64,000 nt of DNA from Haliotis rubra (taxonomy: Eukaryota), in the NCBI RefSeq assembly GCF_003918875.1, contig NW_025766975.1, positions 994,684 to 1,058,683 of the forward strand, read 5' to 3'. Below are positions 2,771-61,654 of this stretch, piece by piece; positions within the stretch are counted from its first letter, which is position 1, and each line of letters starts with the position of its first letter. The position numbers and the translations under genes were made by a program. Below the pieces are notes generated by a model. It did not search any database. It worked only from the letters and a program-made list of their open reading frames with translations, and was not told where the DNA came from.

Positions 2771-3762
2771 AAATAAATAATAATAATAATGGACATTTGT
2801 TATGCGCTATAATCCACACACTAGTGCATGCTCAAAGCGAAGGGGGAAGAGGGAGGGAGTCAGTTATATACAGGGGAGAAAAGGTAAGTCTTAAGTCGTG
2901 ATTTGAAAGCTGTCATAAAATCAGAGTCTTTGATGTGGACTGGCAGTGAATTCCATAGTCTTGGGGCTGCATGAAAGAACGATCGTTTACCAAATGGGGA
3001 AAGTCGAAAAGTTGGTACAGTAAGTAGGAGCTGGTTCTGAGATCGAAGAGTTCTGGCTGGTGTGTATACAGCGATCAAGTCAGTGAGATAGGATGGGGCC
3101 TGGTTGTGGAGGCATTTGTAGACAGTACAGAGAACTTTAAAGTTGATACGTGATTCGATTGGGAGCCAATGAAGTGATTTGAGAACTGGAGTAATGCGAC
3201 ATGATTTTGACTGTAACGAAATGATGCGGGCGGCCGTATTCTTTACTTTCTGCAGCCTTTTATGCTGAGCCCTGTTAAGACCTACAAGCAGCCCGTTGCA
3301 ATAATCTAATCTGGAGGAAATTAGACATCTGACTAGAATCTTCGTGCTTTCTTCTGTGATGTACTTCCGGATGTTCCCAATCCTGCGCAAATGGAAATAG
3401 CAGGTTTTATAAAGTCTGTCGATATGTACATCCATGGCGAGATCCGACTCTAGCCATACGCCAAGATCCTTCACCAGAGGAGAAAAGGCAACCTGTGAGG
3501 AACCTATTGTTATACTATCACTTGTGATAATCTTCAATTGTTGTGATCTGCCAATAGGTAATACTTCAGTTTTATCATCATTCAGTCTTAAAACTCTACT
3601 TGTCATCCATGTTTTTATCTGGGTTGTGCAGTTTTCAATGTTCTTGAAAGTAGCTGCTTCTGTATCTGTATCTGGTATACAGGAGGAAGAGGACAGGTCC
3701 CATAACGGAGCCTTGAGGGACACCACACGATAGAATGGATTTCTTGGAGAGATTATCAGCAA
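2771..3762 (-). mobile_element. 5'-truncated non-LTR retrotransposon (LINE) 3' fragment: RT C-terminal region plus (ATT)n tail
   Basis: 300-aa ORF with RT C-terminal motifs (LRLNDDKTE..., SRLDYCNGLLVG, AARII, ITPVLKSLHWLP, SRINFK, RSFFHAAPRLWNSLP, FKSRLKTYLF); minus-strand 3' end at (ATT)n 2771-2790. Confidence 0.8.
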
Positions 3763-12544: not shown

Positions 12545-13818
12545 TACTTACCAGGCAAGTACTACCCAAATAGTTACCATGATTTGTGGCAATCAAGAAT
12601 CAATATTTAGCATGTTATGTGACAGTCAGGTACCTATATTTACCATGCTCTGTGAAATGCTCAGTGACAGTATAACATCACAGTTAGCATGTTCTGTGAC
12701 AGTCAGGTACCTATATTTACCATGCTCTGTGAAATGCCCAGTGACAGTATAACATCACAGTTAGCATGTTATGTGATGGTCAGGTACCTATATTTACCAT
12801 GCTCTGTGAAATGCTCAGTGACAGTATAACATCACAGTTAGCATGTTCTGTGACAGTCAGGTACCTATATTTACCATGCTCTGTGAAATGCTCAGTGACA
12901 GTATAACATCACAGTTAGCATGTTATGTGACAGTCAGGTACCTATATTTACCATGCTCTGTGAAATGCTCAGTGACAGTATAACATCACAGTTAGCATGT
13001 TCTGTGACAGTCAGGTACCTATATTTACCATGCTCTGTGAAATGCCCAGTGACAGTATAACATCACAGTTAGCATGTTATGTGATGGTCAGGTACCTATA
13101 TTTACCATGCTCTGTGAAATGCTCAGTGACAGTATAACATCACAGTTAGCATGTTCTGTGACAGTCAGGTACCTATATTTACCATGCTCTGTGAAATGCT
13201 CAGTGACAGTATAACATCACAGTTAGCATGTTATGTGACAGTCAGGTACCTATATTTACCATGCTCTGTGAAATGCTCAGTGACAGTATAACATCACAGT
13301 TAGCATGTTATGTGACAGTCAGGTACCTATATTTACCATGCTCTGTGAAATGCTCAGTGACAGTATAACATCACAGTTAGCATGTTATGTGACAGTCAGG
13401 TACCTATATTTACCATGCTCTGTGAAATGCTCAGTGACAGTATAACATCACAGTTAGCATGTTCTGTGACAGTCAGGTACCTATATTTACCATGCTCTGT
13501 GAAATGCTCAGTGACAGTATAACATCACAGTTAGCATGTTATGTGACAGTCAGGTACCTATATTTACCATGCTCTGTGAAATGCTCAGTGACAGTATAAC
13601 ATCACAGTTAGCATGTTCTGTGACAGTCAGGTACCTATATTTACCATGCTCTGTGAAATGCTCAGTGACAGTATAACATCACAGTTAGCATGTTATGTGA
13701 CAGTCAGGTACCTATATTTACCATGCTCTGTGAAATGCTCAGTGACAGTATAACATCACTGTGATGGTCAGTCATCAATAGTAGCCATGTTTTGTGACAG
13801 TTAAGTATCTATATTTAC
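12545..13818. repeat. Satellite D: 77-bp unit x about 16, abutting the donor of MVP exon 22
   Basis: period 77 measured (12681 to 12758); minus-strand unit ...CAGAGCATG|GTAAATATAGGTACCTGACTGTCAC... matches exon 22 end ...CAGGGCATG|GTAAATATAGATACTTAACTGTCAC. Confidence 0.85.
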
Positions 13819-13883
13819 CATGCCCTGTGTCTCCAGTCTAGCTTGATGTTCTATTGCCTCTGCCTCTGCCTTCAGTTTTGCAG
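13819..13883 (-). CDS. MVP: MVP exon 22 (cap-helix)
   Basis: gggttttttccag|CTGCAAAACTG ... GGCATG|gtaaat; encodes (A)AKLKAEAEAIEHQARLETQGM (cf. LQAKLKAQALAIETEAELQRVQK). Confidence 0.75.
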
Positions 13884-14074: not shown

Positions 14075-17000
14075 CCTGAATGACTGTTTGACCAGAAAAC
14101 TTTCTTCCATAAAAATCCATCTGTATCACACACAGCTCACCTTCAATCTCACTCTGACACTCTATAAGCATCCTCTCTGCCTGGGCCTCTATCACACACA
14201 GCTCACCTTCAATCTCACTCTGACACTCTATAAGTATCCTCTCAGCCTGGGCCTGCATCACAGCTCACCTTCAATCTCACTCTGACACTCTATAAGCATC
14301 CTCTCTGCCTGGGCCTGCATCACAACTCACCTTCAATCTCACTCTGACGCTCTATAAGCATCCTCTCAGCCTGGGCCTGTATCACACACAACTCACCTTC
14401 AATCTCACTCTGACACTCTATAAGCATCCTCTCAGCCTGGGCCTGCATCACAGCTCACCTTCAATCTCACTCTGACGCTCTATAAGCATCCTCTCAGCCT
14501 GGGCCTGTATCACACACAACTCACCTTCAATCTCACTCTGGCACTCTATAAGCATCCTCTCAGCCTGGGCCTGTATCACACACAGCTCACCTTCAATCTC
14601 ACTCTGACGCTCTATAAGCATCCTCTCAGCCTGGGCCTGTATCACACACAACTCACCTTCAATCTCACTCTGACGCTCTATAAGCATCCTCTCAGCCTGG
14701 GCCTGTATCACAGCTCACCTTCAATCTCACTCTGACGCTCTATAAGTATCCTCTCAGCCTGGGCCTGCATCACAACTCACCTTCAATCTCACTCTGACGC
14801 TCTATAAGCATCCTCTCAGCCTGGGCCTGCATCACAGCTCACCTTCAATCTCACTCTGATGCTCTATAAGCATCCTCTCAGCCTGGGCCTGTATCGCACA
14901 CAGCTCACCTTCAATCTCACTCTGACGCTCTATAAGCATCCTCTCAGCCTGGGCCTGCATCACAGCTCACCTTCAATCTCACTCTGACACTCTATAAGCA
15001 TCCTCTCAGCCTGGGCCTGTATCACACACAGCTCACCTTTCAATCTCACTCTGGCTCTATATAAGCATCCTCTCAGCCTGGGCCTGCATCACAACTCACC
15101 TCTTCAATCTCACTCTGACACTCTATAAGCATCCTCTCAGCCTGGGCCTGTATCACACACACAACTCACCTTCAATCTCACTCTGCCAGCTCTATAAGTA
15201 TCCTCTCAGCCTGGGCCTGTATCACACACAGCTCACCTTCAATCTCACTCTGACACTCTATAAGTATCCTCTCAGCCTGGGCCTCTATCACACACAGCTC
15301 ACCTTCAATCTCACTCTGACACTCTATAAGTATCCTCTCAGCCTGGGCCTGTATCACACACAGCTCACCTTCAATCTCACTCTGACACTCTATAAGTATC
15401 CTCTCAGCCTGGGCCTCTATCACACACAGCTCACCTTCAATCTCACTCTGACACTCTATAAGTATCCTCTCAGCCTGGGCCTCCTATCACACACAGCTCA
15501 CCTTCAATCTCACTCTGACACTCTATAAGTATCCTCTCAGCCTGGGCCTGTATCACACACAGCTCACCTTCAATCTCACTCTGACACTCTATAAGTATCC
15601 TCTCAGCCTGGGCCTGTATCACACACAGCTCACCTTCAATCTCACTCTGACACTCTATAAGCATCCTCTCAGCCTGGGCCTGCATCACAACTCACCTTCA
15701 ATCTCTCACTCTGACACTCTATAAGCATCCCTCTCAGCCTGGGCCTGTATCACACACAACTCACCTTCAATCTCACTCTGACGCTCTATCAGTATCCTCT
15801 CAGCCTGGGCCTGTATCACACACAGCTCACCTTCAATCTCTCACTCTGACACTCTATAAGTATCCTCTCAGCCTGGGCCTGTATCACACACAGCTCACCT
15901 TCAATCTCACTCTGACACTCTATAAGCATCCTCTCAGCCTGGGCCTGTATCACACACAGCTCACCTTCAATCTCACTCTGACACTCTATAAGTATCCTCT
16001 CAGCCTGGGCCTGTATCACACACAGCTCACCTTCAATCTCACTCTGACACTCTATAAGCATCCTCTCAGCCTGGGCCTCTATCACACACAGCTCACCTTC
16101 CAATCTCACTCTGACACTCTATAAGCATCCTCTCAGCCTGGGCCTCAGCTATCACACACAGCTCACCTTCAATCTCACTCCTGACACTCCTATAGGTATC
16201 CTCTCAGCCTGGGCCTGTATCACACACAGCTCACCTTCAATCCCACTCTGGCACTCTATAAACATCCTCTCAGCCTGGGCCTGTATCACAGCTCACCTTC
16301 AATCTCACTCTGACGCTCTATAAGCATCCTCTCAGCCTGGGCCTGCATCACAACTCACCTTCAATCTCACTCTGACGCTCTATAAGCATCCTCTCAGCCT
16401 GGGCCTGTATCACAGCTCACCTTCAATCTCACTCTGACACTCTATAAGCATCCTCTCTGCCTGGGCCTCTATCACACACAGCTCACCTTCAATCTCACTC
16501 TGGCTGCATCCTCTATAAAGTATCCTCTCAGCCTGGGCCTGTATCACACACAGCTCACCTTCAATCTCACTCTGACACTCTCACACAAGCATCCTCTCTG
16601 CCTGGGCCCTCCTATCACATAATGTCAGCTCACCTTCAATCTCACTCTGACCTCTGTAAGCATCCTCTCTGCCTGGGCCTCTATCACACACGTCTCACCT
16701 TTCAATCTCACTCTGACCTCTATAAGTATCCTCTCAGCCTGGGCCTGTATCACACACAGCCTCACCTTCAATCCTCACTCTGATACTCTATAAGCATCCT
16801 CTCTGCCTGGGCCTCTATCACACACAGCTCACCTTCAATCTCCTCCTGACCTCTATAGGTATCCTCTCAGCCTGGGCCTCTATCACACACAGCTCACCTT
16901 CAATTCTCACTCTCAGCCTGGTCTGTATCCTGTGGCTCTCACTCTGACACTCTATAAGTATCCTCTCTGCCTGGGCCTGTATCACACACAGCTCACCTTC

Positions 17001-20000
17001 AATCTCACTCTGACACTCTATAAGTATCCTCTCGGCCTGGGCCTGTCACACACAGCTCACCTTCAGTCTCACTCTGACACTCTATAGACGTCCTCTCTGC
17101 CTGGGCCTCTATCACACAGCTCACCCTTCACTCTCACTCTGACACTCTCTATGGTATCCTCTCTGCCTGGGCTCTGTATCACACACAGCTCACCTTCAAT
17201 CTCACTCTGACACTCTCTATAGTATCCTCAGCCTGGGCCTGTGTCACAGCTCACCTTCAATCTCACTCTGACACTCCTTATAAGCATCCATCTCTGCCTG
17301 GGCCTCTATCACAGCTCACCTTCATACCATTTTCTCTGACCACTCTGCAATGTCCTCCTCTCAGCCTGAGCCTGTATCACTGGCTCACCTTCCAATCTCA
17401 CTCTGTCCTCTATAAGCATCCCTCTCTGCCTGGGCCTGCATCTAACTCACCTTCCAATCTCACTCTGACGCTCTATAAGCATCCTCTCAGCCTGGGCCTG
17501 TATCCAAAACTCACCTTCAATCTCACTCCTGACACTCTATAAGCATCCTCTCAGCCTGGGCCTGCATCACAGCTCACCTTCAATCTCACTCTGACTCTCT
17601 ATAAAGCATCCTCTCAGCCTGGGCCTGTATCACAGCTCACCTTCAATCTCACTCTGACACTCTATAAGCATCCTCTCTGCCTGGGCCTCTATCACACACA
17701 GCTCACCTTCAATCTCACTCTGGCACTCTATAAGTATCCTCTCAGCCTGGGCCTGTATCACACACAGCTCACCTTCAATGTCACTCTGACACTCTATAAG
17801 TATCCTCTCAGCCTGGGCCTGTATCACACACAGCTCACCTTCAATCTCACTCTGACACTCTATAAGCATCCTCTCAGCCTGGGACTGCATCACAACTCAC
17901 CTTCAATCACTCTGACAATCTATAAAAGCATCCTCTCAGCCTGGGCCTGTATCACAGCTCACCTTCAATCTCACTCTGACACTCTATAGAAGCATCCTCT
18001 CTGCCTGGGCCTCTATCACAGCTCACCTCCAATCTCACTCTGGCTCTATAAGTATGTCCTCTCTGCCTGGGCCTGTATCACAGCTCACCTTCAATCTCAC
18101 TCTGACACTCTATAAGCATCCTCTCTGCCTGGGCCTCTATCACACACAGCTCACCTTCAATCTCACTCTGACACTCTATAAGTATCCTCTCAGCCTGGGC
18201 CTGTATCACAGCTCACCTTCAATCTCACTCTGACTCTCTATAAGTATCCTCTCAGCCTGGGCCTGCATCACAACTCACCTTCAATCTCACTCTGACACTC
18301 TATAAGCATCCTTTCAGCCTGGGACTGCATCACAACTCACCTTCAATCTCTCACTCTCATGACACAGCTCTATAAGCATCCTCTCAGCCTGGGACTGCAT
18401 CACAGCTCACCTTCAATCCTCACTCTGACACTCTATAAGCATCCCTCTCACCTGGGCCTGTATGTCACACAGCTCACCTTCAATCTCACTCTGACACTCA
18501 ATAAGCATCCCCTCAGCCTGGGCCTGTATCACACACAACTCACCTTCAATCCCTCTCTAGGCTCTATAAGGATCCTCTCAGCCTGGGCCTGTATCACACA
18601 GCTCACCTTCAATCCCACTCTGACTCTATAAGCATCCTGGGCCTGGGCCTGTATCACACACAGCTCACCACCTTCAATCTCACTCTGACACTCTATAAGC
18701 ATCCTCTCAGCCTGGGCCTGTATCACACACAGCTCAGCTTCAATCTCCTCTCTGGCTCTATAAGCATCCTCTCAGCCTGGGCCTGTATCACAACTCACCT
18801 TCAATCTCACTCTGACACTCTATAAGCATCCTCTCAGCCTGGGCCTGTATCACAGCTCACCTTCAATCTCACTCTGACGCTCTATAAGCATCCTCTCAGC
18901 CTGGGCCTGTATCACAACTCACCTTCAATCTCACTCTGGCACTCTATAAGCATCCTCTCACCCTGGGCCTGTATCACACACAGCTCACCTTCAATCTCAC
19001 TCTGACACTCAATAAGCATCCCCTCAGCCTGGGCCTGTATCACACACAACTCACCTTCAATCCCACTCTGACACTCTATAAGGATCCTCTCAGCCTGGGC
19101 CTGTATCACACACAGCTCACCTTCAATCCCACTCTGACACTCTATAAGCATCCCCTCAGCCTGGGCCTGTATCACACACAACTCACCTTCAATCCACTCT
19201 GACACTCTATAAGCATCCTCTCAGCCTGGGCCTGTATCACACACAGCTCACCTTCAATCTCACTCTGACGCTCTATAAACATCCTCTCAGCCTGGGCCTG
19301 TATCACAGCTCACCTTCAATCTCACTCTGACGCTCTATAAGTATCCTCTCAGCCTGGGCCTGTATCACACACAGCCTCACAGCTCACCTTCACATCTCAC
19401 TCTGACTCTCTATAAGCATCCTCTCAGCCTGGGCCTGTATCACACACAACTCACCTTCAATCTCACTCTGGCACTCTATAAGTATCCTCTCAGCTGGGCC
19501 TGTGTCACACAACTCACCTTCAATCTCACTCTGACACTCTATAAGTATCCTCTCAGCCTGGGCCTGTATCACACACAGCTCACCTTCAATCTCACTCTGA
19601 CACTCTATCAGCATCCTCTCAGCCTGGGCCTGTGTCACACAGCTCACCTTCCATCCACTGACTGGCTCTATAAGCATCCTCTCAGCCTGGGCCTGTATCA
19701 CACACAGCTTACCTTCAATCTCACTCTGGCAGTCTATAAGTATCCTCTCAGCCTGGGCCTCTATCACCACACAGCTCACCTTCAATCTCACTCCTGGCAC
19801 TCTATAAGCATCCTCTCGGCCCTGGGCCTGTGTCACACACAACTCACCTTCAATCTCGCTCTGGCACTCTATAAGGTATCCTCTCAGCCTGGGCCTCCCT
19901 ATCACACACGCTCTTCACCGTCTCACTCTGACACTCTATAAGTATCCTCTCGGCCTGGGCCTGTATCACACACAGCTCACCTTCAATCTCACTCTGACAC

Positions 20001-20420
20001 TCTATAAGTATCCTCTCAGCCTGGGCCTGTATCACACAGCTCACCTTCAATCTCACTCTGACACTCTAAGCATCCTCTCAGCCTGGGCCTGTATCACACA
20101 CACAAGCTCACCTTCAATCTCACTCCTGGCGCTCTATAAGCATCCTCTCAGCCTGGGCCTGTATCACACACAGCTCACCTTCAATCTCACTCTGACACTC
20201 TATAAACATCCTCTCAGCCTGGGCCTGTATCACAGCTCACCTTCAATCCCACTCTGACACTCTATAAACATCCTCTCAGCCTGGGCCTGTATCACAGCTC
20301 ACCTTCAATCTCACTCTGACACTCTATAAGCATCCTCTCAGCCTGGGCCTGTATCACACACAGCTCACCTTCAATCTCACTCTGGCACTCTATAAGCATC
20401 CTCTCAGCCTGGGCCTGTGC
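14075..20420. repeat. Satellite C: 62/66-bp unit x about 95-100 (~6.3 kb), starting at the donor of MVP exon 21
   Basis: period 66 measured (14131 to 14197); 62-bp variants lack CACA; minus-strand unit ATACAGGCCCAGGCTGAGAGGATGCTTATAGAGTGTCAGAGTGAGATTGAAG|GTGAGCTGTGTGTG = last 47 nt of exon 21 + consensus donor + 19 nt intron; in-frame (22 aa QAQAERMLIECQSEIEGELCVI); degenerate or frameshifted in 16100-17600 and 19390-19900. Confidence 0.9.
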
Positions 20421-20784: not shown

Positions 20785-22880
20785 TAATTTTTGGAGTAAA
20801 ATTGATATTTTATACTTATCCTGACTCATGCTCTTTTTGCTTGTCTTCTTCTTCTTGCGAACATAGTGGAACACTTGTATCTCCCTAATTGAAGCTCCCT
20901 TCAATTTAAAATCACTAATTAGTATTCACCACGAGTTACCTCCTTTCCACAAGCGCGGGAACGAGGGCGCCACCTCTACCCATGTGCCTCACTCTCTCCT
21001 CATATACTGAGCCCAACATTTGAATTTACAGGAAATCCAAAGTGTTATTTGGGGAGGATGGGAGGGGCTGACCTCATGAGTCAGGATAAGTATAAAATAT
21101 CAATTTTACTCCAAAATTACATATTTTCCTTATCCTGACTCATGCTCTTGCTTGTAGCATCCTACGGACGGAGGTGGGAATATCTAATACTTTGGATTTT
21201 TAATAATTAGTGATTTGAACTGTGATGATTGTAATAACCCTATGGGAACTTCATAAAGGCACTGAACTGATGAATTCCTGCTGCTAACTTATCAGCTGCC
21301 ATATATGTTAAAAGGTTATTACCATGTACTTATTATGATAAAGTATATATAACATTAATACAATGCTTAAGACTAATAGACTTAAGCTTGTTAATATGCT
21401 AGTATAAACTCCTTAGAGTTTGTTAGCTAAAATACTTTAAGATATAACATAGTACTAAGCTTAAGATATGATTAAACTTAAGCTAATTATATAATAGCAA
21501 ACTCTTTAGAGTTTGTTAGCTAATCTACTTATATGATATAGATATAGTGCTGAGCTTAAGATATGAATAAGCTTTAGCTACCTATATATATAATAGCAAA
21601 ACTCTGTAGAGTTTGTTAGCTAATATATTTTTATAATATGAGTATAGTACTATGCTTAAGGTATAATTAGCTTAAGTTACCTATATAATAGTAAAACTCC
21701 GTAGAGTTTGTTAGCTTAATTAACTTAAGCTATGTATAAAATAGCCAAAAACTCTGTAGAGTTTGTTAGCTAATGCATTTATCATGTAACCATAGTATTA
21801 CTCTTAAGATATGAATAACTTAAGGTAAATATATATAATAACAAACTCTGTAGAGTTGTTAACTTATATATTGTATGATGTAATAATCATAGTACTGTGA
21901 TGATAAAAGGAACTTAAGTAAATTATATATAGCATGAAGCTATTTAGTATTGTTATAAGATAAGTAAAAATCTGTTAGATTGACTTATCTTCTAAGAGGA
22001 ACTGTCAGCTGTTGTGCGAGGACCATGGGATCGAATTGGTGTATACCTGAGACGTCCTCCTGGTGGTGATATCTCTCAGATAATGGTTTGCAACCACCAT
22101 ATCGATTTCCAGAAATAAACCCTCCATTATTTCAATCACATTTGTGTAGAACAATTGTAGAAGTTAGCGCTATAATATCATGAGTATTAAGCTCATGGAG
22201 GGTCGGAATAGGTCCATCCGCATATGCACGTAGTATGACAGTTCTGATCCAAATGGAGATATAGTACATGAGACTTCACTCTGCGTAAGTTGATGATAGA
22301 GGAAATAATCTGTTGCATTTTTCCTCCTGTTTGGTTTGGTGGAGATAAATTTACAGTGCTCTTGCTGGCCATCTTGATAGAATCATCGTGATCATGGGGT
22401 CCAAGTATGTCATCCAGGCGGTTGTTCATAAACCCGGATCAGCAGCAGCATAAAAACGCAATCTGTAATAGTACAGAATTTTCATCAACGAATCCACTGA
22501 AACAAACACGCGCCCCGTGAATAAACTGTAGAAAAAAACGAATTAAATATCAATATATAATCGCTTGAAGGATACTAGCTAAACCTCTATAGATGTCTAT
22601 ACGAGGTAACTAACTAAATATAATTCAAAGGATATAGTGTGTCGGAGACACAGGCGCTTCTCACGTCCAGCTCACTGGGCGAAGAAGGAGAGAGTGAGGC
22701 ACATGGGTAGAGGTGGCGCCCTCGTTCCCGCGCTTGTGGAAAGGAGGTAACTCGTGGTGAATACTAATTAGTGATTTTAAATTGAAGGGAGCTTCAATTA
22801 GGGAGATACAAGTGTTCCACTATGTTCGCAAGAAGAAGAAGACAAGCAAAAAGAGCATGAGTCAGGATAAGGAAAAATTA
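20785..22880. mobile_element. TE1: ~2.1-kb non-autonomous foldback-like DNA element with ~230-bp terminal inverted repeats
   Basis: 20812-21040 is the reverse complement of 22660-22880 (CTTATCCTGACTCATGCTCTTTTTGCTTGTC...GGCGCCACCTCTACCCATGTGCCTCACTCTCTCC); subterminal hairpin CATGAGTCAGGATAAG...CTTATCCTGACTCATG; internal ~60-bp tandem array 21340-21900; shared with TE2. Confidence 0.75.
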
Positions 22881-41519: not shown

Positions 41520-42440
41520 CAATACCTACATGCAAAGCATCTACACCAACATCATGTATCTTCACTACCTACACCATCAACATCGACATTGTTAAAAACA
41601 CTTACATCAACATCATGGGCATCAACATCAACATCTGTCAGGCAACATCAACTTTATTTATACTTACACGAACATTATCTACACCAACAGCATTGTCTGT
41701 ACCCATACTGTCTTCACCAACAGCAATGACGGCACCCACACTGTCTACACCAACAGCATCTACACCTACATCATCTATATCAACAGCATTGACGGCACCT
41801 ACACCAACAGCATCTACACCTACATCATCTATATCAACGGCAATGACGGCACCTACACCAACAGCATCTACACCTACATCATCTATATCAACAGCAATGA
41901 CTGCACCCACACTGCCTTCACCAACAGCAATGACGGCACCTACACTGTCTAGACCAACATCATCTACACCTACATCATCTATATCAACAGCAATGACTGC
42001 TACCACAGTGGTAAAAAATATCAATGAATATTGGGTCAACACCATTATCATCTACAGCAACAGCATTGACTGCACCCAGATTGTCTACATCAACAGCATC
42101 AACAGCTTCCACATCTACACCAACTGCACTGACTGCACCCACACTTTCTTCACCAACTGCATCTACACCTACATCACCAATATCAACCGCACTGACTGGG
42201 CACACACTGTATCAACAGCACCTACACCTACATTAACTACACCAACAAAATTGTCTACAACAGCAGCATCTACATCTTCATCATCTACACCAACAGCATT
42301 GACTGAACCCAAATTGTCCACAACAACAGCATCCACATGTACATCAACAACAGTGAATGCATCAACATTGTCTACAACAGCATCTACATCAACTTCAGTA
42401 ACATTATTTAAAACTTTACATTCTCTACAGGTATAATCAC
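41520..42440. repeat. 54-bp CA-rich minisatellite (intron 8)
   Basis: period 54 measured (ACGGCACCTA at 41801 and 41855); unit ACACCAACAGCATCTACACCTACATCATCTATATCAACAGCAATGACGGCACCT; produces a spurious 324-aa Thr/Pro/Ser-rich ORF on +. Confidence 0.8.
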
Positions 42441-47024: not shown

Positions 47025-49665
47025 CACCATTGCAGCTCTAGAAATGTGGTCTACTCGCCACATCAGCTCTAGCAATGTGGTCTACTCGCCACATCAGCTC
47101 TAGGAATGTGGCCTACTCAACACATCAGCTCTAGGAATGTAGGTTACTCAACACATAAGCTCTAGGAATGTAGGCAACTCGCCACATCAGCTCTAGGAAT
47201 GTGGTGTACTCAACAGCTCAGCTCTAGGAATTTGGTCTACTTGCCACATCAGCTCTAGGAATGTGGTCTCTCGCCACATCAGCTCAACACATAGGCTCTA
47301 GGAATGTGGTCTACTCGCCACATCAGCTCTAGGAATGTGGTCTACTCAACATATCAGCTCTAGGAATGTGGTCTACTCAACACATAGGCTCTAGGAATGT
47401 GGTCTACTCAACACATCAGCTCTAGGAATGTGGCCACATCAGCTCTAGGAATGTGGTCTACTCAACATATCAGCTCTAGGAATGTGGTCTACTCACCACA
47501 TCGGCTCTAGGAATGTGGTCTACTCAACACATCAGCTCTAGGGATGTAGCTTAGTCACCACATCAGCTCTAGGGATGTAGCCTACTCAGCTCTAGGAATG
47601 TAGGTTACTCACAACATCAGCTCTAGGAATGTGGCCTACTCACCACATCAGCTCTAGGGATGTAGGCTACTCACATCAGCTCTAGTAATGTGGGTTACTC
47701 ACCACATCAGCTCCAGGAATGTAGGCTACTCACCACATCATCTCTAGGAATGTAGGCTACTCACCACATTAGCTCCAGTGATGTAGGCTACTCACCACAT
47801 CATATCTCTAGGAATGTGGGTTACTCACCACATCAGCTCTAGGAATGTGGGTTACTCACCACATCAGCTGTAGGGATGTAGGTTACTCACCACGTCAGCT
47901 CTAGGAATGCAGGCTACTCACCACATCAGCTCTAGGCATGTAGGCTACTCACCACATCAGCTCTAGGGATGTAGGCTACTCACCACATCAGCTCTAGGAA
48001 TGTGGGTTACTCACCACATCAGCTCTAGGAATGTGGGTTACTCACCACATCAGCTCCAGGAATGTAGGCTACTCGACACATCAGCTGTAGGTATGAAGGT
48101 TACTCACCACATCAGCTCTAGGAATGTAGGCTACTCACCCACATCAGTTCTAGGAATGTAGGCTACTCACCACATCAGCTCTAGGAATGTGGGTTACTCA
48201 CCACATCAGCTGTAGGGATGTAGGTTACTCACCACATCAGCTCTAGGAATGCAGGCTACTCACCACATCATCTCTAGGCATGTAGGCTACTCACCACATC
48301 AGCTCTAGGGATGTAGGCTACTCACCACATCAGCTCTAGGAATTTGGGTTACTCACCACATCAGCTCTAGGAATGTGGGTTACTCACCACATCAGCTCCA
48401 GGAATGTAGGCTACTCGACACATCAGCTGTAGGGATGAAGGTTACTCACCACATCAGCTCTAGGGATGTAGGCTACTCACCACATCAGCTCTAGGAATGT
48501 AGGCTACTCACCACATCAGTTCTAGGAATGTGGTTTACTCACCACATCAGCTCTAGGAATGTGGTTTACTCACCACATCAGCTCTAGGAATGTGGGTTAC
48601 TCAACACATCAGCTCTAGGAATGTAGGCTACTCACCACATCAGCTCTAGGAATGTGGGTTACTCACCACATCAGCTCTAGGAATGTAGGCTACTCACCAC
48701 ATCAGTTCTAGGAATGTAGGCTAATCACCACATCAGCTCTAGGAATGTAGCCTACTCACCACATCAGCTCCAGGCTACTCACCACATCAGCTAGGAATGT
48801 AGGCTACTCATCACATCAGCTCTAGGAATGTAGGCTACTCACCACATCAGCTCTAGGAATGTAGGCTACTCACCACATCAGCTCTAGGGATGTAGGCTAC
48901 TCAACACATCAGCTCTAGGAATGTAGGCTACTCACCACATCAGCTCTAGGAATGTAGGCTACTCACTACGTCAGGTCTAGGAATGTGGGTTTCTCACCAC
49001 ATCATCTCTAGGAATGTAGGCTACTCACCACATCAGCTCTAGGAATGTAGCCTACTCACCACATCAGCTCTAGAAATGTAGGCTACTCATCACATCAGCT
49101 CTAGGAATGTAGGCTACTCACCACATCAGCTCTAGGAATGTAGGCTACTCACCACATCAGCTCTAGGGATGTAGGCTACTCACCACATCAGCTCTAGGAA
49201 TGTAGGCTACTCACCACATCAGCTCTAGGAATGTAGGCTACTCACCACATCAGCTCTAGGGATGTAGGCTACTCACCACATCAGCTCTAGGGATGTAGGC
49301 TACTCACCACATCAGCTCTAGGAATGCAGGCTACTCACCACATCAGCTCTAGGGATGCAGGCTACTCCCCACATCAGCTCTAGGTATGTAGGCTACTCAC
49401 CACATCAGCTCTAGGAATGTGGGTTTCTCACGTCAGCTCTAGGGATGTAGGCTACTCACCACATCAGCTGTAAGGATGTAGGCTACTCACCACGTCAGCT
49501 CTAGGGATGTAGCCTACTCAACACATCAGTTCTAGGAATGTAGCCTACCCCAATCAGCTCTAGGAATGTAGGCTCATCACCACGTCAGCTCTAGGGATGT
49601 AGGCTCATCACCACATCAGCTCTAGGGATGTAGGCTACTCACCACATCAGCTCTAGGGATGTAGG
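47025..49665. repeat. Satellite B: 31-bp unit x about 85 (~2.6 kb), starting at the donor of MVP exon 4
   Basis: period 31 measured (48841 to 48872); minus-strand unit CCTACATYCCTAGAGCTGATGTG|GTGAGTAG = last 23 nt of exon 4 (..YIPRADV) + GTGAGTAG donor. Confidence 0.9.
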
Positions 49666-50803: not shown

Positions 50804-50867
50804 CTGATGAAGTCTTACTTCCTTGTGTCCAAGTTTGAGCTCACATGCCTTGCCTGCCTCATAGTGG
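50804..50867 (-). CDS. MVP: MVP exon 3
   Basis: gtttctcttctag|CCACTAT ... CATCAG|gtaggt; encodes (S)HYEAGKACELKLGHKEVRLHQ (cf. [29 protein letters not shown]). Confidence 0.75.
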
Positions 50868-51040
50868 CTAGAAGAGAAACAGCAAAGCATTAAACAAAAC
50901 CCATCTTCATCAACACCTAGAAATATGCTTGTGTATAGCCAGGTCAAAAGCAATGGCTCAGAGATTGTGATTAGTCTTGCTAGATTACCTACCAGACTTG
51001 ATGCAAACATTTAGTAGGAGTACATATATTGGGAGATCAA

Positions 51041-53265
51041 CACCTGTTAGGTGACCGAGATGACCTCACCTCATGGGGTCTGTGATGATGTTATGGTGAC
51101 CGAGATGACCTCACCTCATGGGGTCTGTGATGATGTTATGGTGACCAAGACTACCTCACCTGATGGGGTCTGTGATGGTGTTATGGTGACTGAGATTACC
51201 TCACCTGATGGGGTCTGTGATGGTGTTATCGTGGCTGAGATGACCTCACCTGATGGGGTCTGTGACACTGTTATCGTGACTGAGATGACCTCACCTGATT
51301 GGGTCTGTGATGCTGTTATGTTGACCGAGATGACCTCACCTGATGGGGTCTGTGATGCTGTTATGGTGACCGAGATGACCTCACCTGATGGGGTCTGTGA
51401 TGGTGTTATGGTGACCGAGATTACCTCACCTGATGGGGTCTGTGATGCTGTTAGGGTGACCGAGATGACCTCACCTCATGGGGTCTGTGATGCTGTTATC
51501 GTGACTGAGATGACCTCACCTGATGGGGTCTGTGATGTGTAATCATGACCGAGATGACCTCACCTGATGGGGTCTGTGACGGTGTTATCGTGACTGAGAT
51601 GACCTCACCTGATGGGGTCTGTGATGCTGTTATGGTGACCGAGATGACCTCACCTGATGGGGTCTGTGATGCTGTTGAAGTGACTGAGATGACCTCACCT
51701 GATGGGGTCTGTGATGCTGTTATTGTGACTGAGATGACCTCACCTGATGGGGTCTGTGATGCTGATGAAGTGATCTGAGATGACCTCACCTGATGGGGTC
51801 TGTGATGCTATTATAGTGACTGAGATGACCTCATCTGATGGGGTCTGTGTGATGCTGTTATCGTGGACCAAGATTACCCTCACCTGATGGGGTCTGTGAT
51901 GCTGTACCTATCGGACTGAGATGACCTCACCTGATGGGGTCTGTGATGTATTATCATGACTGAGATGACCTCACCTGATGGGGTCTGTGATGCTATTATG
52001 ATCGTGACTGACCTCACCTGATGGGGTCTGTGATGCTGTTATGGTGACTGAGATGACCTCACCTGATGGGGTCTGTGACACTGATGAAGTGATCAAGATG
52101 ACCTCACCTGATGGGGTCTGTGATGATGTTATGGTGACCGAGATGACCTCACCTGATGGGGTCTGTGATGATGTTATGGTGACTGAGATGACCTCACCTG
52201 ATGGGGTCTGTAATGCTGTTATCATGACCAAGATGACCTCACCTGATGGGGTCTGTGATGCTGTTATGGTGACTGAGATGACCTCACCTGATGGGGTCTG
52301 TGATGCTGTTATCGTGACTGAGATGACCTCACCTGATGGGGTCTGTGATGCTGTTATCGTGACCAAGATGACCTCACCTGATGGGGTCTGTGATGCTGTT
52401 ATCATGACCAAGATGACCTCACCTGATGGGGTCTGTAATGCTGTTATCGTGACTGAGATGACCTCACCTCATGGGGTCTGTAATGCTGGTGACTACCTTA
52501 TGCTATTATGGTGACTGAGATGACCTCACCTGATGGGGTCTGTGATGCTGTTATCGTGACCGAGATGACCTCACCTGATGGGGTCTGTGATGCTATTATG
52601 GTGACTGAGATGACCTCACCTCATGGGGTCTGTGATGCTGTTATCGTGACCAAGATGACCTCACCTGATGGGGTCTGTGATGCTGTTATGGTGACTGAGA
52701 TGACCTCACCTGATGGGGTCTGTGATGATGTTATGGTGACCGAGATGACCTCACCTGATGGGGTCTGTGATGATGTTATGGTGACCGAGATTACCTCACC
52801 TGATGGGGTCTGTGATGCTATTATGGTGACCGAGATTACCTCACATGATGGGGTCTGTGATGGTGTTATGGTGACCGAGATGACCTCACCTGATGGGGTC
52901 TGTGATGCTGTTATCGTGACTGAGATGACCTCACCTGATGGGGTCTGTGATGATGTTATGGTGACCGAGATGACCTCACCTGATGGGGTCTGTGATGATG
53001 TTATGGTGACCGAGATTACCTCACCTGATGGGGTCTGTGATGCTGTTATGGTGACCGAGATGACCTCACCTGATGGGGTCTGTGATGATGTTATGGTGAC
53101 CGAGATGACCTCACCTGATGGGGTCTGTGATGATGTTATGGTGACCGAGATTACCTCACCTGATGGGGTCTGTGATGCTATTATGGTGACCGAGATTACC
53201 TCACATGATGGGGTCTGTGATGCTGTTATCGTGACCAAGATGACCTCACCTGATGGGGTCTGTGA
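51041..53265. repeat. Satellite A: 45-bp unit x about 49 (~2.2 kb), starting at the donor of MVP exon 2
   Basis: period 45 measured (52741 to 52786); minus-strand unit TCACAGACCCCATCAG|GTGAGGTCATCTCGGTCACCATAACAKCA = last 16 nt of exon 2 (..VTDPI) + CAG|GTGAGG donor + 29 nt intron; irregular segment 51780-52040. Confidence 0.9.
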
Positions 53266-53383
53266 CACTGATGTAGTGACCAGGAGGGACAACGATCATA
53301 GGTAAAGGTCCAGCCTCAAGACGTTCATTACTCTTCAGGACGAGGGTCTGTGGCCCGACCTCTAGCCGTGTGATGTTCGTTGT
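53250..53383 (-). CDS. MVP: MVP exon 2
   Basis: cctgtgttgcag|ACAACG ... CCCATCAG|gtgagg; encodes TTNITRLEVGPQTLVLKSNERLEAGPLPMIVVPPGHYISVTDPI (cf. [44 protein letters not shown]). Confidence 0.85.
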
Positions 53384-56877: not shown

Positions 56878-57800
56878 ATGCACCCCCAAACCTGGTTGAA
56901 ACATTCACATTATAACGTCAGCAGGATGCCCCTTCTCACGACAGCTCAGGGGAACAAGGCGCAAAGAAGACTTGAAGCTGGCCTCACTGCACAAACCGTT
57001 GCCAATCACTTCCAGGTCAACGTTTGGACCATCTACAGGCTGCAGCAACGTTTCCGGGCCACCAACACCACAAATGATTCCCCCCGTACTGGCAGACCAA
57101 GGGTGACCACAAGACGACAAGACCGCCATGTTGTGCGACAGCAAGTACAGAATCTCTTCATGCAGGCATCCGAAACAGCACGCCAGACAGTGGGAACACA
57201 CGGAAGACCAATCAGTACTGATACAGTACGACGACGTCATAACAGCGGGAACCTCCATTGCCGTAGACCTTACCGTGGACCTATCCTCATCCCTCGTCAT
57301 CGGCGTGAACGTCTGCAGTTTGCCCTACAACACGAAAACTGGCGACACAGGCAATAGTGAACTGTTCTGTTCAAAGATGAGAGTCGGTACTGCGTATCAA
57401 GTGCAGATGGCAGAACAAGAATATGGCGACGACGTGGCCAGCGTCACTCAGACCAATGTGTTATGGAAAGAGACTCATGGGGAGGTGCAAGCATCAATGT
57501 ACTTGAAGGGGCTGGCAATATAATACCGACATTATCAGGAGTAGTACAAGCACCGCACGCACCGTGTGGCTTTTTTCAGTTTAGGAAAGCAATGTGCCAC
57601 AGATGCCTTAGACGGAACGCGCCTTGCAGAGTTGCGTCCCTTAGCCTCTTACGTCGGATTCGCAGAACCGCCACGGAACCATCCCTTTACCGAAACATCA
57701 AGGCTTTCATGCAGAAACACCAAAGCTTACTACATGATTACCGCCAGCACAGCTGCAGACCTTTAAACCGGTCACTATTCAGACCTTTCCAAGCGTGTTA
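56878..57800 (+). mobile_element. degenerate Tc1/mariner-family transposase remnant (frameshifted)
   Basis: 159-aa ORF with paired-like HTH ...RTGRPRVTTRRQDRHVVRQ...GRPISTDTVRRRHNSGNLHCRRPYRGPILIPRHRRERLQFALQHENW; downstream frames continue catalytic-domain-like segments (RVGTAYQVQMAEQEYGDDV..., WGGASINVLEGAGNIIP...) across frameshifts. Confidence 0.7.
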
Positions 57801-60644: not shown

Positions 60645-60888
60645 CCCGTGAATGTCCGGGTTAGAATTCTTCTTCAGCAACTCATGCTTGTCGTAAGAGG
60701 CGACTAACGGGTCAGGCTCGCTGATTGGGTTGACACATGTCATCGTATCCTAATTGCGCAGATCGATGTCCATGCTGTTGATCCCTGGATTGACTGGTTC
60801 AGACACGATTATTTACAGACCGCCACCATATAGCTGGAATATTGCTGAGTGCGGCGTAAAACTAAACTCACTCACTCACTCGCTACGT
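60645..60888 (+). mobile_element. SINE-B copy
   Basis: CCCGTGAATGTCCGGGTTAGAATTCTTCTTCAGCAACTCATGCTTGTCGTAAGAGGCGACTAACGGGTCAGGCTCGCTGATTGGG...GGAATATTGCTGAGTGCGGCGTAAAACTAAACTCACTCACTCACTCGC. Confidence 0.75.
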
Positions 60889-61249
60889 ATGACTGTCTAT
60901 ATGATGTGTGGCGCTATCTCGTACTACGACCTTCACATCGAGATTTTACTGTTTATTCTCTGGCCAGCATTTATTTACTGTTATGAAATCTGTGTGAGTA
61001 TTGGATGCAAACTTACCGTATTTGCAAACATCAGGTGCCAGCACTGATTTTCAGGGACTTGTTGTATTTTCAAACATGTATAACTCGTCCACAAATAGAC
61101 TTTAGTACATGGATTTTTACATCAGTTTAGGAGAAGGAAATGTCTATACAACCAAGTGGATAATGTTAGATAACAGAGAAGTTGAGCGCCATGGTGACGA
61201 CGTAGCGCGGGCCCGACGTCAGGTCTCCTGGCTCTCAGTCCAATCTCTC

Positions 61250-61654
61250 TCAACCTGTTCCGTACAGTTTACTGGATATCCTCAGAAGTCCAGGCACACT
61301 GGCTGCTGTGCTCTCACACGTGGCAGTACGATCACGCAAATGTAGTACCCGGATGTACCGATCTTGGGCTACAGTGGTGACTCGAGGTCTGCCTGTACGG
61401 GGACGGGCATTTGTTATGCCTGTTTTGTTGTAACGAGCTGCAAGCAGTGATATCGTGCTCATACTAACATTCAGGCTCCCGGCAACGGAAGATTGGTAAT
61501 CGCCAGCGTGCATTCTTTCAATAGCGATGTTCCGTGTCGCAGCGTCAAGACGTGGCGTAGTGATTTGACCTTGAAACTTCTTCAAAACGAATGCCGATTT
61601 CCGAAAGTCATCTGCATGTTTAGACAGTGCATGCTCTTTGCTGCACAATTTCAA
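61250..61654 (-). mobile_element. Tc1/mariner transposase N-terminal fragment (second, different copy)
   Basis: ORF ...RLDAATRNIAIERMHAGDYQSSVAGSLNVSMSTISLLAARYNKTGITNARPRTGRPRVTTVAQDRYIRVLHLRDRTATCESTAA: paired-like HTH and GRPR motif; no DDE domain follows. Confidence 0.65.

Follow-up and report, generated by a model that had tools for sequence, protein, structure and literature searches.

The 64,000-nucleotide stretch of Haliotis rubra DNA analyzed here (the window; RefSeq assembly GCF_003918875.1, contig NW_025766975.1, forward-strand positions 994,684 to 1,058,683) contains the gene for the major vault protein (MVP), whose second intron is occupied by a minisatellite composed of copies of the exon 2 donor junction. 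A tblastn search with a human MVP sequence located the gene on the minus strand, from ~54.3 kb to 10.4 kb of the window. The closest annotated match to a near-full-length model of 762 amino acids was the "major vault protein-like" protein of H. asinina (84% identity), with all other matches at 59% or below, and the 90% cluster of this H. asinina protein also includes proteins of H. rufescens, H. cracherodii, and H. rubra. Tolerant protein threading, in which two neighboring AG/GT choices were adjusted before full identity was reached, yielded an intact gene of 26 coding exons whose translation is identical to H. rubra XP_046574866.1 over 861/861 residues, in keeping with an origin from blacklip abalone or a virtually identical relative. 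The annotated MVP proteins of three other abalones were each reproduced exactly, also from 26 coding exons, by threading their own loci, which are referred to as L001 (H. asinina), L002 (H. rufescens), and L003 (H. cracherodii); L004 denotes the locus of an MVP paralog in H. cracherodii. The 26-exon structure is identical in the four Haliotis species, with no new intron position. The boundaries of exons 2 and 3, which an earlier sequence-only reading of this DNA had named as the point at which its account could fail, are those of the H. rubra RefSeq protein and fit the three reproduced Haliotis proteins.

Protein threading places coding exon 2 at 53250..53383 on the minus strand (134 nt, ...PPGHYISVTDPI, ending in phase 2) and coding exon 3 (SHYEAGKACELKLGHKEVRLHQ) at 50804..50867 on the same strand, leaving an intron 2 of ~2.4 kb (53249-50868) of which 93% is occupied by the array. 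The array itself, described by Tandem Repeats Finder (TRF), a unit table, column statistics, and a unit-type map, comprises 49 units of 45 bp at 51044..53265 (-), and TRF also calls its period at 90 and 135, with 83-93% matches. In a fuzzy search, the core CCCCATCAGGTGAGG was found 49 times on the minus strand, spaced by exactly 45 bp in 42 of 48 intervals. This bears out the sequence-only reading, which had described about 49 tandem CAG|GTGAGG donors in 45-bp units following the MVP exon 2 donor, with the start of the array at 51044 in TRF where 51041 had been given; the 45-bp consensus, TCACAGACCCCATCAGGTGAGGTCATCTCGGTCACCATAACAGCA, also equals the unit reported there. The first core is the authentic donor of exon 2, with the exon ending at 53250 and the intronic GT (CAG|GTGAGG) at 53248..53249 (-), within the first repeat unit, and the other 48 are pseudo-donors. 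Beyond the array lies a unique 3' part of the intron (50868..51043, minus strand, 176 nt), which ends in the acceptor TTCTCTTCTAG| and is orthologous to the tail of intron 2 in H. asinina.

The splice signal is well preserved among the units. Their cores read CAG|GTGAGG in 41 cases, GAG|GTGAGG in five, CAT|GTGAGG in two, and CAG|ATGAGG in one (at 51843, where GT is lost), such that AG|GTGAGG is kept in 46/49 units and GT in 48/49, and the exact 9-mer CAGGTGAGG of the authentic site, which covers the U1-pairing positions, is common to 41. When the 20-nt donor junction of exon 2 (12 nt of exon and 8 nt of intron, with at most three mismatches) was searched inside its own intron, it recurred 48 times, as against no recurrence in a control intron. 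The units are otherwise far from uniform, as 35 distinct sequences are present in an ordered variant structure. CpG sites are found among the variable unit columns and show CG to TG/CA changes, which is consistent with decay of methylated CpG.

Nothing at the level of folding appears to hide these sites. The array folds no more strongly than shuffled sequence (z = 0.13), with no sign of RNA structure that could mask the pseudo-donors; no inverted repeats were found in the intron 2 array, and Rfam, scanned at gathering thresholds over the entire window, had no match. These results also bear on the idea that the array gives rise to small RNAs or is targeted by them, as a PIWI-interacting RNA (piRNA) or small interfering RNA (siRNA) locus would; mapping of piRNAs or small RNAs to the array was a check proposed in the sequence-only reading. 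Its repetitive nature is the one feature pointing that way, as frames free of stops on both strands say nothing on this question. Against it stand the lack of inverted repeats or structure, the derivation of the unit from the host gene's own exon rather than from a transposon, and the position of the array on the sense strand of an expressed housekeeping-type gene. We therefore give this idea very little weight.

Although 45 is a multiple of three, the units do not extend the MVP reading frame. A transcript in which any one of the first six pseudo-donors was joined to exon 3 would stop at codon 69 (...VTDPIR*), through the same ATC AGG TGA read-through recognized in the sequence-only reading, and a TGA stands two codons past the exon end in every 45-bp unit. 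Repetitive open reading frames (ORFs) do run through the array, as MTSPDGVCDAVMVTE on the plus strand and TITASQTPSGEVISV on the minus strand, and both strands are stop-free in some frames because of the 15-codon periodicity. They had been interpreted as by-products of that periodicity, and this agrees with the Pfam search, in which their only matches (YajR_YAM and others) came from adding up repeats that each fell below threshold, and no stretch passed; the families themselves were rejected as periodicity artifacts. A coding tandem repeat was likewise rejected, since the gene frame is not open through the units. We see hardly any chance that the array represents coding repeats or alternative exon extensions, or a spurious expansion introduced during assembly. 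The first would suit a period divisible by three, but an in-frame TGA directly follows each donor and such an insert is missing from MVP proteins across animals. The second is conceivable because long tandem arrays are error-prone in assemblies, yet three independent assemblies, each from another species, carry the array at this very junction, and 35 distinct unit sequences in an ordered arrangement would not be expected of an artifact.

Comparison with the other abalones clarifies the origin of the unit. The sequence-only reading saw in the unit a copy of the exon 2 tail and donor, and this can be refined: homology extends beyond the 16-nt tail to the last ~40 nt of exon 2, as the 24 exon nt upstream of that tail (TCCCTCCTGGTCACTACATCAGTG) resemble the 3' part of the unit (TCATCTCGGTCACCATAACAGCA). 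In H. rufescens and H. cracherodii, the consensus unit, TCCCTCCTGGTCACTACATCAGTGTCACAGACCCCATCAG|GTGAG, consists precisely of 40 nt of the exon 2 end followed by 5 nt of intron, so the H. rufescens pseudo-sites share the full -40..+5 context of the real site, and therefore only position can distinguish them from it. Unit period and register are equal in all four Haliotis species, with the tail of the window unit diverged. Every species carries GACCCCATCAG as the exon-derived half of its unit, even where its own exon differs, as it now does at the exon 2 end in H. rufescens and H. cracherodii (CCG) and in H. asinina (CCAGTC). In the last of these (L001 4195-4215), the authentic donor is CAG|GTCAGT after an exon ending in ..DPV, while the downstream array still carries GACCCCATCAG|GTGAGG, and the array therefore holds an older state of the exon end. 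From this pattern, we infer that a single ancient duplication of 45 bp spanned the junction and that the lineages diverged afterward.

Each of the three other species has an orthologous array at this junction, built of lineage-specific unit variants, and copy numbers are 49 in the window, ~24 in H. asinina, 33.6 in H. rufescens, and ~32 in H. cracherodii. The H. asinina array is degenerate (74% matches, with the core kept in 12/18 detectable units) and includes a ~655-bp higher-order duplication that was read by eye from the sequence. Compared pairwise, units have a mean identity of 0.86-0.93 within species, 0.83 between the window and H. asinina, 0.91 between H. rufescens and H. cracherodii, and 0.72-0.74 between the two clades that these pairs form, and an excess of within-species over between-clade identity is the pattern expected of concerted evolution. 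Within the window, exact copies of the authentic junction unit stand at array positions 14 and 20, and a block of three units is repeated 8 units on; block duplication or exchange has therefore been recent and has included the real junction.

Taken together, these observations make it probable that the intron 2 array is a junction-spanning intronic minisatellite of the kind described as amphioxus mirages and in intron 7 (IVS7) of human F7, produced by tandem duplication and unequal exchange, near-neutral, and tolerated because the first donor is used. Several hallmarks of mirages are present, with head-to-tail units of minisatellite size (about 10-160 bp) that span an exon-intron boundary, an authentic junction in the terminal position, preserved splice signals, and array lengths that differ between species under concerted evolution. 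The process would have begun in an ancestor of living abalones with a 45-bp tandem duplication taking in 40 nt at the end of exon 2 and 5-6 nt at the start of intron 2, and the array would then have grown downstream into the intron by unequal exchange or replication slippage, with ongoing block duplication and conversion maintaining the likeness of units within each lineage. The array would have no product of its own. If splicing picks whichever of several equivalent 5' splice sites lies farthest upstream, the 48 copies would stay intronic and leave with intron 2, and any transcript spliced from a pseudo-donor would meet a TGA two codons on and become a target for nonsense-mediated decay. The uniformity of the exon-derived half may be explained in the same framework, because the first unit, which shares in the exchanges, is presumably under purifying selection both as coding sequence and as splice site. 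Tolerance would thus account for the survival of donor-side arrays and for why acceptor-side or exon-internal ones mostly would not survive. H. rufescens isoform X2 was considered as a sign of pseudo-donor use and set aside as uninformative, as it simply begins at Met102 in exon 4.

Both known systems resemble the abalone array closely while differing from it in scale. Amphioxus mirages span a junction, keep their splice signals, give normal mRNA, are unstable in length, and undergo concerted evolution (PMC3087553, PMC3902484); as cited in these two papers from Canestro et al. 2002, they are known in Adh3, TnC, the globins BflGb6/9, and PGBD5. As in abalone, a head-to-tail unit lies over the exon-intron boundary, AG/GT is copied, copy number is unstable, units are concerted, and several genes or introns are affected. 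However, mirages in the globins have ~2-6 copies, whereas the abalone arrays have 49-96 in intron 2 and in its largest sister array, four arrays share one gene and make up 28% of it, the phenomenon is genus-wide, and the host is a gastropod rather than a cephalochordate. Mirages also occur on both sides of the junction, in contrast to the donor junctions only that are affected in Haliotis. In the 37-bp variable number tandem repeat of human F7 intron 7 (Borensztajn et al. 2006, PMC1557585), the first monomer holds the junction and is followed by identical pseudo-5' splice sites, as in abalone, and it was shown experimentally that these pseudo-donors are functional but silent, with the most upstream site chosen. 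F7 has 5-9 copies and some of its pseudo-sites would keep the frame, whereas abalone intron 2 has 49 units and its pseudo-sites would all lead to an immediate TGA. The Rogers intron-gain model, as outlined where it is cited (ref. 72 in PMC3087553), shares with abalone a tandem duplication of AG|GT and a message restored by splicing between copies; the abalone duplication differs in falling on an existing junction and lengthening an existing intron. Within the genus, a 27-bp repeat of ~62 copies in intron 3 of a TSSK1-like gene of H. discus hannai (PMC6905558) is of the same size class, intronic, and variable in length, although it was not reported to include the junction. Full-text literature searches found no report of junction-spanning minisatellites in molluscs and nothing relevant on U1 or pseudo-site arrays. 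The class is thus already known from amphioxus and F7, and what is notable here is its occurrence in a mollusc, its scale, the presence of multiple arrays per gene, its persistence across a genus, and its bias to donors.

Three further arrays are present in the same gene, all on the minus strand and all located by TRF and the junction search. Units of 31 bp at 47033..49665 copy the exon 4 tail and donor (CTACATCCCTAGAGCTGATGTG|GTGAGTAGC), with 76 junction recurrences; ~96 units of 66 bp at 14121..20418 copy 48 nt of the exon 22 tail with the donor (..GAGATTGAAG|GTGAGC); and ~15 units of 77 bp at 12607..13829 follow a first unit that has diverged and holds the exon 23 donor (CACAGGGCATG|GTAAAT). 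Their shared architecture upholds the earlier view that the intron 2 locus is of the same kind as three other satellites in this stretch. Together with the 45-bp array, they amount to 12.3 kb, or 28% of the 43.9-kb gene. The 66-bp array is not present in H. asinina, H. rufescens, or H. cracherodii. Use of its first pseudo-donor (first units ~20368-20240) would be in frame and would add 22 amino acids (GELCVIQAQAERMLIECQSEIE) in the C-terminal helical region of MVP, while later pseudo-donors of this array give stops because its second unit measures 62 nt. The 77-bp unit of the window corresponds, at the exon 23 donor, to a 33-bp unit present in 85 copies in H. rufescens (L002 35833-38666) and 34 copies in H. 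cracherodii (L003 39450-40581), and comparison of the units suggests that the 77-bp form derives, as a higher-order repeat, from the 33-bp one (CACAGAGCATG|GTAA...TGACTGT). The exon 11 donor (..GTGAAGAGAAG|GTAGG) has a degenerate two-copy relic in the window (38376-38300, minus strand); a junction unit of 34/43 bp is present there in ~26 copies in H. rufescens (L002 19358-20257) and ~52 copies in H. cracherodii (L003 18376-20375), and is absent from H. asinina. A degenerate array of 15/33/36 bp (..GATGTTGATGTGGGTGTAGAT.. on the gene strand) lies ~1 kb inside intron 8 (window 41678-42299, L002 16212-17262, L003 15195-15526); its sequence faintly recalls the end of exon 8 with its donor (GAAGTTGGAGTG|GTAAGT), so it may represent an ancient junction array that has since been displaced.

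The 20-nt junction test was applied to every locus. Donor-junction recurrences were found in introns 2 (48), 4 (76), 22 (79), and 23 (15) of the window; 2 (32), 4 (13), 11 (24), and 23 (82) of H. rufescens; 2 (28), 4 (3), 11 (44), and 23 (28) of H. cracherodii; and 4 (6) of H. asinina, where the intron 2 array goes uncounted in this strict search because the authentic donor has diverged to CAG|GTCAGT. No acceptor junction recurred in 100 Haliotis introns, and the same junctions searched in another intron of the same gene gave no matches in any mollusc locus. Outside Haliotis, the MVP gene of Patella vulgata has a 50-bp array of ~11 copies at the exon 6 donor and one two-copy duplication, and in that of Ostrea edulis the donor is duplicated in three introns, while one array on the acceptor side (x8) has the real acceptor as its last copy. 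Gigantopelta aegis has a perfect two-copy 76-bp junction duplication in one intron, in addition to a larger array discussed below. Littorina saxatilis has one single-copy acceptor recurrence that is not convincing. The test detected no junction arrays in Lingula anatina or in the Haliotis MVP paralog, and matches only at the control level in the annelid Owenia fusiformis. In all, ~12-13 independent events on the donor side and two on the acceptor side can be counted in molluscs. In the H. cracherodii paralog, a 34-bp array of 40 copies in intron 6 (L004 7057-8410) starts 12 nt past the donor, which is not copied, and a second copy of the junction (ATCAAG|GTAA.CACGTTCC) is found at its 3' end, as if the array had grown between duplicated junctions.

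Several of these results, with others from intron 2, weigh against a purely neutral, tolerated array. The donor lies within the first unit in four of eight intragenic arrays, where random placement would give at least four with P ~1.4e-4, and intron interiors, a target ~30x larger, hold no more arrays than donors do. Given this excess at so small a target, tolerance alone fails to explain the origin of arrays at donors. It also fails to account for repeated arrays at the same or homologous junctions: arrays have been kept at the same junctions across the genus (introns 2, 4, and 23), and G. aegis has a 74-bp array of ~20 copies at ..SEIE|GTAAAC, the junction homologous to that of the 66-bp array, with an independent origin. 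The donor core (-3..+6) shows 0.017-0.042 substitutions per site against 0.056-0.092 in the rest of the unit, a 2-3x lower variability, as measured in the window, H. rufescens, and H. cracherodii, where unit detection is complete. Finally, use of the first donor in intron 2, as far as the sequences indicate, is predicted from annotation and protein conservation. The low variability of the core and of the exon-derived part can be explained by exchange with a constrained first unit, although it would also be expected from selection on the pseudo-donors.

These points could be accommodated by a junction-linked process at 5' splice sites, such as breaks arising from transcription or splicing, or template switching at U1-bound donors, or by selection of the arrays as multi-U1 platforms. 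We regard this group of explanations, taken with other non-neutral readings, as unlikely. If correct, a junction-linked or multi-U1 explanation would cover the ~30x per-base excess at donors, the bias of donors over acceptors, the recurrence in distant gastropods, and the low variability of the core.

U1 binding has roles beyond splicing, and a selected platform of ~48 U1 small nuclear ribonucleoprotein (snRNP) sites might boost transcription or elongation, suppress premature cleavage and polyadenylation in introns rich in transposable elements, or supply decoy donors that send an adjustable share of transcripts to decay, as in regulated unproductive splicing. The reduced variability of the donor core in three species, the retention of GT in 48/49 units, the persistence of arrays at introns 2, 4, and 23 in Haliotis lineages that have diverged, and the strong excess of donor-anchored arrays would all suit such a role. 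On the other hand, copy number differs widely between species (49, 24, 33, and 32 in intron 2, and 96 against 0 for the 66-bp repeat), decay is under way in the H. asinina array, and no such arrays are present in Littorina, Lingula, or the Haliotis MVP paralog. Moreover, exchange with a constrained first unit predicts a conserved core as well, and the units are not independent observations. A selected U1 platform therefore strikes us as improbable.

The juxtaposition of AG and GT in each unit also suggests recursive splicing, in which each CAG|GTGAGG would serve as an acceptor and then as a regenerated donor, a zero-length site of the Rogers AG|GT type. The array would be removed stepwise, and any pairing of sites would restore the exon 2 end. 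AG stands directly before GTGAGG in every intact unit, an ATAAC motif resembling a branch point was read from the sequence ~22 nt upstream of the unit AG, and such splicing would leave no trace in mature mRNA. Recursive sites in the long introns of Drosophila and vertebrates share the juxtaposed AG|GTRAG; abalone differs in its weak pyrimidine tract, its short intron, and the tandem arrangement of its sites. The tract upstream of the unit AG is 50% pyrimidine, whereas the 25 authentic acceptors of the gene average 67%, and adjacent units are 45 nt apart, which is under the usual minimum intron sizes. Known recursive splice sites serve very long introns, and the abalone intron measures only 2.4 kb. 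Recursive removal of the array is thus very unlikely, and a near-neutral minisatellite tolerated behind a functional first donor is retained as the favored explanation.

With 48 repeated donors placed directly after the real one, intron 2 represents an extreme natural version of the F7 model of 5' splice-site choice. Were the abalone arrays shown to be junction-linked or to act through multiple U1 sites, MVP, with 48, 76, 79, and 15 pseudo-donors in four introns, would provide a large-scale test bed for such choice. Since arrays are found in four introns, across the genus, and in limpets, a vent snail, and an oyster, mirages are no amphioxus curiosity, and the link between arrays and splice junctions is open to genome-wide study in molluscs. 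In practical terms, the arrays lengthen introns, mislead gene predictors by offering dozens of equal donors, and are likely to be hypervariable markers.

The window also contains repeats that differ from the exon-derived arrays. A ~95-bp AT-rich satellite (TAGAGTTTGTTAGCTAATA...) is common to intron 21 (21406-21931) and intron 14 (29791-31145) and is dispersed and not tied to junctions. Intron 14, the longest at 7.2 kb, further contains a 12-bp CpG-rich repeat (CCTTCGCGAACG) at 33769-33980, within a GC-rich region at 32-36 kb; the same intron is only 0.5-1.3 kb in other Haliotis and has therefore probably received a lineage-specific insertion in the window. The window shows no sign of a second host gene, and the flanks hold only debris of long interspersed nuclear elements (LINEs), Tc1/mariner elements, and short interspersed nuclear elements (SINEs). 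This debris, as judged by eye from ORF translations, includes a 300-amino-acid ORF for the C-terminal part of a LINE reverse transcriptase (2860-3762, minus strand) and two Tc1/mariner-like transposase fragments (56878-57357, plus strand, and 61250-61654, minus strand). SINE-like heads (GTGTAAAACTAAAC[T]CACTCACTCACTC, translating as ..GVK[LP]NSLTH..) occur a short way upstream of several exons and also in the flanks (~37600-37570, 23600-23575, 10640-10610, and 60800-60900, and ORFs 476-712 and 2531-2776), and in H. asinina the places corresponding to them are occupied by ACTC/TCAC microsatellites (L001 13280, 15724, and 18119).

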